A stretch of 64,000 bases of DNA from NCBI RefSeq assembly GCF_056712565.1, contig NZ_CM160072.1; one strand, written 5' to 3'. Below, one piece after another: positions 54,001-57,000 of this stretch (position 1 is its first letter; each line of letters begins with the position of its first letter). The position numbers are program-made.

Positions 54001-57000
54001 CAGAGTCCCTGAAGTGACCTCCGGCAGGGCACTGTCTCAGGCACTCTGTGATAACCCGAACGGTCGTCTCCGGACTGACGGTTGAATTTTCAGCGTTGTT
54101 TTTTTAATGTAAAAAACCGGTTACGGGTAAGGCTGTGAGGAGGGAGTGATGGTGATACGCAAAAAGAAGTGCAGGGACTGTGGAAACGCGATTACTCATA
54201 ATACAGTGTGTTGCCCGTATTGTGGTTCTGTCGACCCCTTCGGCTATTACCGGAATACAGACCGTATCGTTACCATACTGCTGGCACTGATTATTGTGGT
54301 CCTGCTGACTACTGTCAGCGTCAGTGTGTATATACTGTGTAGCTGGTGAGATAACGGTTCATGTATCCCCTGAGCTGACAGTGTACCGGGTATATTAAGC
54401 GTAACCGACAGGTTCTCCTTCATACCATATTAAATTTTTCCAGGTATTGCCGCTGCCTTATTTCGTCCCATACAGGAAAACTCGTCTGGGTTTCTGACAA
54501 ATACGCGAAACTCACAGCCCCTCAATATCAACCACACGCCGTAAGCCGGTAATACCTGAAAATCAGTCTATTACCGCCCGCGCCTCCGTTACCGAACGCT
54601 CAGGTGACAAGACTGAAGCCAGCACGCACTCGTAAAATTTGCGGTCAGTTCTGCCAGCCGGTTGTCAACGGCAGAGTTAAAGGCTTCCAGCTCCGCAAGG
54701 GTAAGTTTATAACGCGTGTGGGAATTCACTTTTCCCGCGTCTCCTGACGTATTACGGGCTGCCACTTACCTGGTGTCCCGCAATACAGCCTTAGTGTTCC
54801 GTTATCGGGGATCCGGACGCACCGCAACAACCGGGGAAGTATTTCTGGTTAGAGCAGTGTCAAGAGGGATTTCTCAGCCCCTCACTCACCGGCTCAGTCT
54901 CAGGGCAGGAGCATTAATACGCTCAGTTCATGTCTTATACAGGAATGGGCATAGGGGGAGCTGGCGTGTCACTGCTGATTTTACGCATCAGCGTTCATGT
55001 ATTTGCACTCTGATACAGAATGCTTCACAGCGCTCTGTTACCGGAGAGATTTACTCTCTTAGGTTATTCTGGCAAATCCTTTACGTTACTCTCTGATGAC
55101 TTCTTATATTTATAATACCAATCAGACAACCTTATCCCATCGGTGATATCAGTCTCCTGCTCGCCAGGAACGGGCTGACTCACTGTAACCACCTCCGAAA
55201 ACAACTCTGCAATTATCAGAACGCCTGCTTCTCTCCCTGTCCTCACGAAAACTATCCCCTCTTTATCGCGCGTGCGTGCGGAAGCATCTTTTCGCACCCC
55301 CGTTACTTTATTCGTACCCCTTATAATGGGGTGTTAGCCAGCCAGACCCGGCATGATTACTGCCCCCAGTCGTCCATGATCCGGGGGGTGATGTCACCGG
55401 GTCTGGTGGGGCGCTGGTAACCGCTAATAGGGGTCAGGTCAGGCACTTTTGCCGGGACCGTCTGTAACGTGGATGCCGGTACCTGCTCCCCGTGGTTATC
55501 TGGTTAACCCATATACAAGGGAGACAGAATGACCGAATCCAGCGATTACGAATCCGTCCAGGTCTTTATCGGCGTTGATGTCGGTAAAGATACGCATCAC
55601 GCTGTAGCCATTAATCGTTCAGGTAAACGCCTGTTCGATAAAGCATTACCCAACGACGAAAACAAACTCAGGTCGCTAATATCTGACCTGAAACAACATG
55701 GTCAGATACTGCTGGTTGTTGATCAGCCAGCTACCATCGGTGCGTTACCTGTCGCCGTTGCCCGCTCAGAAGGAGTCCTTGTCGGATACCTCCCTGGACT
55801 GGCCATGCGCCGCATAGCCGACTTACACGCCGGTGAAGCTAAAACTGATGCTCGTGACGCTGCCATCATTGCCGAAGCTGCCCGTACCCTGCCTCACGCG
55901 CTACGCACGCTGAAACTGGCTGACGAGCAAATCGCCGAACTCTCCATGCTCTGCGGCTTCGATGATGATCTTGCCGCACAGACAACGCAGGCCAGCAACC
56001 GTATCCGCGGCCTTCTGACCCAGATACATCCGGCACTGGAGCGCGTTCTCGGTCCGAGACTTGATCACCCGGCGGTACTCGATCTTCTCCAGCGATATCC
56101 CTCACCAGAAAAACTCGCTTCGCTGGGTGAGAAGAAGCTGGCAGCCCAGCTCTGCAAACTTGCGCCTCGTCTGGGTAAACGCCTTGCAGCAGACATAGCT
56201 CAGGCACTGGCCGAACAAACCGTCGTCGTTCCCGGCACGAATGCCGCTGCCGTAGTACTGCCACGTCTGGCACTCCAGCTCATCACGCTGCGTAAGCAAA
56301 GAGACGAGGTGGCGCTTGCGGTAGAACAGCGAGTTCTTGCTCACCCTCTTTACCCGGTCCTGACCAGTATGCCCGGAGTCGGTGTCAGGACCGCAGCCAG
56401 ACTCCTCACCGAGGTCGCCTGCCGCGCCTTCGCCTCTGTCGCACATCTCGCTGCTTATGCTGGCCTTGCGCCGGTAACTCGGCGATCCGGCTCGTCAATA
56501 CGCGGTGAGCATCCCTCGCGACGGGGTAATAAAGCTCTCAAACGGGCGTTGTTCCTGTCGGCCTTCGCCGCGCTCAGGGATCCGCTCTCCAGGGCTTACT
56601 ACACCCGCAAAATGAGTCAGGGAAAACGACACAATCAGGCGCTTATCGCCCTGGCGAGACGACGCTGCGACGTTCTGTTCGCCATGATGCGCGACGGGAC
56701 TTTTTATACCCCGCAGGCGTCATAACATGCTTGACAACTTAATAGGGGCACCCCCCGGGATTCCGCTACGGCTCTGCCATCGCAATCCCCCCGTTTATCT
56801 CCGGACAGCCAGATTCCCGATTATTTTTTACGTTTCTCCCCGGTTGTTATGCCGGTGAAGGTGGCGCGCTGTTTTCATGACCACACCGGCTGGTTTAACA
56901 ACATCCGGAGGAACATTCTCATGGCTACCCCAGTTTCGCTGATGGATGACCAGATGGTCGACATGGCGTTTATCACTCAACTGACCGGCTTAACCGATAA

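Follow-up and report, generated by a model that had tools for sequence, protein, structure and literature searches.

A predicted small zinc-ribbon membrane protein encoded in the core of common genomic islands of Escherichia coli

Introduction

Many members of the Pfam zinc-ribbon families Zn_ribbon_3 (PF13248), Zn_Ribbon_1 (PF13240) and DZR (PF12773) have a transmembrane (TM) helix after the ribbon, and none of these families has an assigned function. Their layout, an N-terminal CxxC-x(10)-CxxC motif, a basic linker and one TM helix, is shared by the predicted product of an open reading frame (ORF) of 66 codons plus stop at positions 54149-54349 (plus strand) of a 64,000-nucleotide stretch of contig NZ_CM160072.1 (assembly GCF_056712565.1). 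That whole stretch is called the window here. The product differs from the three families in that it scores below their thresholds, has no domain past the helix and carries a family-specific linker, DPFGYYRNTDR. The phage protein groups PHROG 38187, 10292 and 14275, which also have no assigned function, resemble it as well: their ribbon and TM parts align to residues 6-58 (E = 1.5e-5 to 1.3e-3). These matches are weak, however, and the PHROG profiles, at 136-178 positions, include an extra C-terminal part.

Proteins of other families share the membrane layout. ElaB, YqjD and YgaM, DjlC, Flk and the CnrY-type anti-sigma factors have a short cytoplasmic module followed by a single C-terminal or nearly C-terminal helix, with little exposed beyond it. 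None of them is known to be related in sequence to the window protein or to contain a zinc ribbon. Near the small ORF, neither a sigma factor nor another candidate partner from these systems was found. Type I toxins such as Hok, TisB, Ibs and Ldr are likewise small, hydrophobic and borne on mobile elements, but unlike the window protein they have no conserved soluble domain, a cognate antisense RNA and occluded ribosome-binding sites. Zinc goes unmentioned in a 2025 review of bacterial small membrane proteins; a tail-anchored zinc-ribbon small protein would therefore add a type, if characterised.

In this study, we followed up an original prediction, made by reading the window, that the ORF encodes a small zinc-ribbon membrane protein. 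This reading is supported for the predicted product of ORF 54149-54349.

Results and discussion

The best explanation of the data, to which we give a probability of about 0.75, is that the ORF is a selected gene of the island core whose product would consist of a basic N-terminus, a four-cysteine zinc ribbon, the DPFGYYRNTDR linker and a single C-terminal TM helix. Eleven further loci were fetched for comparison. L001 and L014 are sequence-identical or truncated duplicates and L018 is a 1.5-kb fragment, which left eight loci with flanking DNA: L002-L006, L013 (Salmonella), L015 and L016 (E. albertii). The original prediction had proposed, as a check, that the reading frame should be conserved with synonymous-biased substitutions across homologous loci, and the ORF passed it. 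In codons 2-39, without subtype D (see below), the minimum numbers of changes at codon positions 1, 2 and 3 are 9, 6 and 28 (p = 5e-5); over all eight loci with subtype D included, they are 12, 14 and 35 (p = 3e-4). The dN/dS ratio of the same codons is 0.06-0.16 between intact subtypes by the Nei-Gojobori method, and the window differs from L006 there by seven synonymous and two non-synonymous changes. The frame and a length of 64-66 amino acids are retained in all intact paralogues. In pairs of loci of the same type (L002/L016, L013/L016 and L004/L006) similarity runs beyond the stop codon; the ORF is free of indels, and the DNA past the stop has indels of about 60-110 nt. This substitution pattern indicates that the ORF is a genuine gene under purifying selection.

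The start region was borne out as predicted, namely a 66-codon ORF with a near-consensus Shine-Dalgarno (SD) sequence 5 nt upstream. The encoded protein is MVIRKKKCRDCGNAITHNTVCCPYCGSVDPFGYYRNTDRIVTILLALIIVVLLTTVSVSVYILCSW. The sequence GAGGAGGG at 54137-54144 lies 4 nt 5' of the ATG, and its AGGAGG core (54138-54143) lies 5 nt 5' of it and is unpaired in the minimum-free-energy structure of the leader. A purine-rich SD, either GAGGGAG or GAGGAGGA, is present in all subtypes. Among the 646 window ORFs of at least 30 amino acids, ORF 54149-54349 alone combines an SD-like site, a CxxC..CxxC motif and a segment of TM grade, and no such combined ORF arose in 100 composition-preserving shuffles. 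A chance ORF is ruled out by the codon statistics, the conservation and this uniqueness test. Overlapping minus-strand ORFs (54247-54423 in the window, and a 79-amino-acid call in L013) are not supported, because the region is a variable cassette and the selection signal sits in the plus frame.

Three in-frame start codons follow one another: GTG at 54146, ATG at 54149 and GTG at 54152. The last is an alternative start and the only start codon that is invariant across all family members. The ATG position reads ATC in subtypes B and C, and the coding sequence (CDS) called in these subtypes by the Prokaryotic Genome Annotation Pipeline (PGAP) starts at that ATC (6049-6051 in both L002 and L006). 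For subtypes B and C, a start at the next codon, the invariant GTG, is more plausible, and this GTG may be the true start in all subtypes.

Other parts of the original prediction did not hold. The ORF was thought to be of a kind missed by annotation, but PGAP already has exactly this ORF as WP_001297900.1, a hypothetical protein (E. coli Nissle 1917). Some RefSeq copies are named 'zinc-ribbon domain-containing protein', and the identical UniProt entry A0A024L0K2 is described by one source as 'predicted nucleic acid-binding Zn ribbon protein'. RefSeq and UniProt thus both list the gene already. It was skipped in 2001 when the Shigella SRL island was annotated, with orf40 (Hha) coming next after orf39 (YfjJ-like). 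In the literature, neither the accessions in RefSeq and UniProt nor the N-terminal peptide was found in any paper, and no transcription or translation data, Ribo-seq included, were found for strains carrying the gene. The surroundings had been described as a GC-rich, otherwise non-coding stretch. In fact, the whole window has a GC fraction of 0.499, the ORF one of 0.473 and the DNA on either side 0.509 (upstream) and 0.477 (downstream), and the ORF lies between a YagK/YfjJ gene upstream on the opposite strand and an Hha pseudogene downstream.

The two sequence features noted at the outset, the N-terminal CxxC...CxxC ribbon motif and the C-terminal hydrophobic segment, are both present in the product. 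Codons 1-39 (54149-54265) encode a basic N-terminus (RKKK), the zinc ribbon and the juxtamembrane motif DPFGYYRNTDR, a part predicted to be cytoplasmic. The cysteine motif is C8-x2-C11-x10-C22-x2-C25, with an extra C21. In an alignment of 14 sequences whose identity goes down to 29-38%, C8, C11, C22 and C25 are the only invariant columns. With a shallow family alignment, AlphaFold2 was confident of the helix alone. With the 14-sequence alignment, the mean predicted local distance difference test (pLDDT) score was 85.6; the model has a beta-hairpin with strands at residues 5-7 and 14-16 in a ribbon region of pLDDT 81-87, and a helix at residues 33-65 whose core exceeds 90. The top local Foldseek overlays in the Protein Data Bank (PDB) are all four-cysteine zinc ribbons (Trf, ChsH2/DUF35, reverse gyrase and L40e), with a root-mean-square deviation of 1.5-1.8 Å over 23-28 alignment columns; every one has an E-value above 0.5, because the ribbon domain is tiny. 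In the viral model library, phage 'zinc-ribbon domain proteins' of 61-66 amino acids overlay the whole model weakly. PF13248 is matched by 6 of the 14 members of the wider alignment (best E = 2.2e-6). Taken together, the modelled fold and the alignment support one four-cysteine ribbon, with predicted zinc binding.

The ribbon was also compared with zinc-binding anti-sigma (ZAS) domains. The ZAS motif HxxxCxxC is not matched, since the segment H17-NTV-C21-C22-PY-C25 reads as H-x4-C-x2-C or H-x3-C-x3-C. The C21-C25 region is modelled as a beta-hairpin, whereas the anti-sigma domain is helical. The window protein has no Pfam match to zf-HC2, and no sigma factor gene was found in any locus.

Codons 40-66 (54266-54346) encode the C-terminal TM anchor, which is of cassette type A in the window. 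Its best 19-residue Kyte-Doolittle window scores 2.99 (residues 40-58), and the N-terminal half of the protein stays below 0.4. The tail is uncharged in every subtype. The helix ends 1-3 residues ahead of the stop, and the AlphaFold2 helix leaves one residue. There are seven lysine or arginine residues and three aspartates before the helix, and no residue of these kinds follows the helix. Zinc ribbons depend on a reducing compartment. Both this and the positive-inside rule, applied to the seven basic residues before the helix and none after, point to a tail-anchored protein of the inner membrane whose ribbon faces the cytoplasm (N-in), as inferred from the protein sequence.

The first 39 residues are nearly invariant among the subtypes, and the tail differs. 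The tails are IVTILLALIIVVLLTTVSVSVYILCSW in subtype A (window), IFTALLALLVVVLLVTSAVSMYVLW in subtype B and LLCLLTLLLVLILVTVSGVSVFVLLQ in subtype C. Two tails of different types share 49-63% of their DNA sequence, and two of one type share 82-97%. No TM variant contains a charged residue. Within TM types, the changes at codon positions 1, 2 and 3 number 11, 5 and 11, so that the second position is spared, and all replacements are hydrophobic for hydrophobic. When L016 is compared with the window, identity is 100% at the 5' end of the neighbouring inovirus Gp2-like gene, 99% in the intergenic DNA and 93% in the ribbon part, and it drops to 60% in the tail part. This drop places a recombination boundary at the junction of ribbon and TM helix, with the tail as an exchangeable cassette. 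Cassettes A, B and C are discrete types, and they are found in new combinations with the conserved block upstream (window versus L016, L013, L002 and L006).

A 301-nt query spanning the ORF matched 3501 of 5426 complete E. coli genomes; a matched genome has a median of 2 such places and at most 6. The copies, about 6450 in total, are almost all chromosomal. Each of four alleles occurs on about 900 to at least 1000 contigs, and the exact protein of the window on at least 1000. The family also has members in Shigella, E. albertii, Salmonella and Klebsiella; no relative was confirmed when species were scanned at one genome each. An exhaustive HMMER profile search of 1.84 billion cluster representatives gave 52 matches at E ≤ 1e-3. 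The strong ones form a narrow enterobacterial family that includes frameshifted, truncated and fused variants, and a second profile search with a mixed alignment added little. Phage genomes gave one partial match only, and eight plasmid records, several of them megabase-sized, gave partial matches, so the gene is rare on plasmids and an origin in phages or plasmids was rejected. A named K-12 homologue was also rejected, since yfjJ and yagK in MG1655 have no such neighbour.

Weaker matches (E = 1e-4 to 1e-6) led to proteins of 59-80 amino acids with the pattern K-C-x-x-C-G ... C-P-x-C-G-S-x-D-P-F-G, a basic stretch and a TM helix. They lie in conjugative contexts (TraG/TraH/TraD, DotM, a type IV secretion system (T4SS) coupling protein), each one standing alone and transcribed against its neighbours. 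Look-alikes of 59-78 amino acids are at L009 5001-5219, L010 5001-5237, L012 3002-3181 and L019 6001-6204. A look-alike also lies in an E. coli region with genes of virulence-plasmid type (DUF535, Ail/Lom, FaeA).

Several results weigh against a selected, zinc-binding core gene. By tblastn, the CP4-57 and CP4-6 elements of K-12 MG1655 contain no match. Subtype D (6050-6247 in both L004 and L005) has CPGYVS in place of CPYCGS and thereby loses C25 (CCPGYVSA), and its K6K7 is replaced by TV; at least 1000 contigs nevertheless carry it as an intact ORF of 65 amino acids. This points either to zinc binding being dispensable or to the clonal spread of a decaying allele. Frameshifted (L003), truncated and fused copies occur, and the gene is therefore dispensable in some islands. 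The window protein reaches the gathering threshold of no Pfam family: its best match is to zf-ChsH2, at 16.3 bits against 23.2, and it scores 13.6 against 27 for Zn_ribbon_3 and 14.2 against 27.3 for DZR. The NCBIfam search gave a sub-threshold rubrerythrin-like match only, and the PDB sequence search gave generic ribbons at E > 0.1 only. No fold match in the PDB or the viral model libraries is significant; all have E > 0.1 and are generic zinc ribbons. The promoter scan found no plus-strand site of at least 9/12 for the small ORF. Finally, the look-alikes stand beside unrelated tra/T4SS genes, which argues against a universal partner such as the Gp2-like protein.

Among the fused variants, proteins P0167 and P0169 consist of the ORF without its last residues and stop, reading into a remnant of an autotransporter beta-domain (140 amino acids). 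Their annotation as 'autotransporter domain-containing protein' is likely a mis-annotation of a fusion generated by deletion.

The gene next to the small ORF belongs to the inovirus Gp2 family (YagK_YfjJ_C, PF11726, E = 2.6e-47). It is encoded on the minus strand at 53380-53949, with 189 amino acids by the PGAP start, and its ORF extends to a GTG at 53985; the gene start lies 164-200 nt upstream of the small ORF. The Gp2-like gene is adjacent and divergent in all eight loci, and also in the window and in L001, the identical copy from Nissle 1917. Downstream of it on the minus strand are two overlapping genes with DUF7828 and Zn_ribbon_11 domains, at 52813-53214 and 52415-52825/52912. These DUF7828 genes form an operon-like block with the Gp2-like gene; two are present in 6 of the 8 loci, one in L005 and none in L015. 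Convergent to the small ORF, and 240 nt downstream of it, is an Hha/YmoA gene (54589-54732, minus strand), which is a pseudogene by truncation in the window and intact in several other islands. Hha is found in seven of the eight loci (L002 being the exception), as is an AlpA-like helix-turn-helix (HTH) gene, none being annotated in L003. Further downstream, the islands have a gene for a 200-amino-acid hypothetical protein and then YfjI- and GTPase-family genes. According to a 2025 study, the likely core functions of one widespread class of islands include an inovirus-Gp2-like protein, alpA and an integrase. Judged by its gene content, the neighbourhood is the core of CP4-like integrative islands (integrase/AlpA/Gp2-like), and the small ORF is a member of that core.

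The control region between the two divergent genes (53986-54148) is 85-99% identical between paralogous islands. Over the roughly 200 nt that separate the ORF from the Gp2-like gene, identity to the window is 85-99%, against 58-84% at the third codon positions of the ORF. For the Gp2-like gene, the minus strand has a promoter-like site, TTTACA (54113-54108)-16-GAAAAT (54091-54086), that scores 9/12, and for the small ORF a weak plus-strand candidate of 7/12, TTGAAT (54082-54087)-17-TAATGT (54105-54110), was read by eye. An inverted repeat, GTTTTTT-N6-AAAAAAC (54098-54117), was also read from the sequence. The two candidates share the DNA at 54082-54117, with the -35 of each overlapping the -10 of the other and flanking the inverted repeat. 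This stretch, nearly the same in all islands, could act as an operator or as a divergent switch whose two directions exclude each other.

Two roles for the leader of the small ORF were considered and rejected. Its fold over the start codon reaches z = -2.6 for the window sequence, yet substitutions in L002, L006 and L004 disrupt the 7-bp helix that covers the AUG, leaving no conserved structure to hide the start codon. A leader-peptide or upstream-ORF role is excluded because the next downstream gene, Hha, is convergent and there is nothing in cis to regulate. On the other side of the control region, the 5' leader of the Gp2-like gene (53950-53990, minus strand) folds better than shuffled sequences (z = -2.65). 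A perfect hairpin, CCGUAUG-AAC-CAUACGG, covers the GGAG ribosome-binding site just ahead of the AUG; it is conserved in all aligned loci, with a 5-nt loop insertion in L004. This hairpin suggests translational control of the Gp2-like gene.

What the protein might do can be outlined as follows. The tail would serve only as an anchor, given that islands exchange it in the form of discrete cassettes. Ribbon and linker, which are invariant, would then be a binding module that holds a partner at the inner membrane. The likeliest partner would be a product of the divergent Gp2-like/DUF7828 operon, or nucleic acid. The protein would thus be a small regulator or tether that acts in replicating or maintaining the island, and it would be expressed from the control region common to the small ORF and the Gp2-like operon. 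This mechanism as a whole is tentative, and we consider it possible rather than probable. A bolder form is speculative and has little probability: the protein would found an unrecognised class of tail-anchored zinc-ribbon 'membrane tethers', carried by genomic islands as well as by conjugative elements, in which it would be a member tractable by experiment, and would act here as one arm of a bistable switch, with a promoter overlapping that of the Gp2-like operon, sequestering a replication or excision factor at the membrane and keeping the island quiescent.

Among the other explanations, the one that survives best is a superinfection or entry-exclusion or defence 'moron', which would be made in the quiescent island and stop phage or conjugative DNA from entering at the membrane. 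This idea fits a single small membrane-protein gene that is transcribed against the replication-type operon of its element, and it fits the look-alikes of the same layout inside tra/T4SS clusters, which also lie opposite to their neighbours. The weak match to PHROG 38187 (E = 1.5e-5) covers the N-terminal ribbon and TM helix, and the variable TM cassettes could reflect diversifying interactions. However, it is the anchor that varies and the predicted cytoplasmic ribbon that is invariant, which is the opposite of what is expected of a surface-exclusion determinant. Because only 1-3 residues would be periplasmic, an exclusion protein of this kind could not contact anything beyond the membrane. 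No PADLOC defence model matches the small protein or its three upstream neighbours, and the near-absence from phage genomes also speaks against this explanation. We therefore regard it as unlikely.

An addiction module resembling type I toxins, in which the hydrophobic peptide would harm the membrane, an antisense RNA would restrain it and the island would be stabilised, appears improbable. A length of 66 amino acids, a strongly hydrophobic helix and a place on a mobile element fit such a toxin, type I systems are known from prophages (review PMC12648545), and a minus-strand promoter-like site scoring 10/12 lies within the window ORF (54318-54290). This site falls in the variable TM cassette, though, and no site of at least 9/12 is found inside the ORF of L006 or L002; promoter-like sites found number 2, which equals the chance level (1.2 expected). 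The unpaired SD core and the non-conserved helix over the start codon do not fit the occluded leaders of type I toxins, and the strongest selection acts on the 39-residue predicted cytoplasmic zinc ribbon, which such toxins lack. An antisense RNA or small RNA was rejected, as Rfam gave no match at E ≤ 1 and no antisense promoter is conserved.

That the locus encodes no protein, and that its conservation reflects a DNA- or RNA-level function such as a control region or origin of the Gp2-like operon with the ORF incidental, is very improbable: although the flanking intergenic DNA is more conserved than the ORF and the boundaries of conserved blocks fall within the ORF, this idea is countered by the third-position bias and low dN/dS in the ORF's own frame, by the frame, length and uncharged hydrophobic tail retained over TM cassettes of 49-63% DNA identity, by the conserved SD, and by the four cysteines kept in 29-38% identical relatives from unrelated contexts.

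With the reading as a selected core gene, a hypothetical protein that about two thirds of the sequenced E. coli encode, often several times over, becomes a gene with a defined architecture and a topology prediction. The gene is placed in the conserved core of very common islands of the pathogenicity and fitness kind, among them the Shigella SRL island and those of Nissle 1917, and it offers a handle on the poorly understood Gp2-like/DUF7828/Hha/AlpA core. The gene is ordinary in kind, a generic zinc ribbon with a TM helix; nothing is overturned, and the practical value is modest.

Some features around the gene were noted in passing. The two genes with DUF7828 and Zn_ribbon_11 domains are paralogues, with no NCBIfam or PADLOC match and one weak PHROG match; with the small ORF, the module encodes three zinc-ribbon proteins. 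In the window, a PGAP-called gene for a 77-amino-acid hypothetical protein (55064-55297, minus strand) is present, and a copy of ISEc20 (IS110 family, 55529-56725) lies between the Hha pseudogene and the AlpA-like HTH gene (56921-57127). The island core is partly degraded in the strain of the window. Directly beyond the DUF7828 genes, in the region 50500-52140 of the window, is an ISL3-family transposase pseudogene with an internal stop. Beyond it, according to the annotation of Nissle 1917, is a metabolic cargo cluster that encodes a PfkB kinase, a glutamine amidotransferase, a DMT transporter and a phosphotriesterase-related protein.

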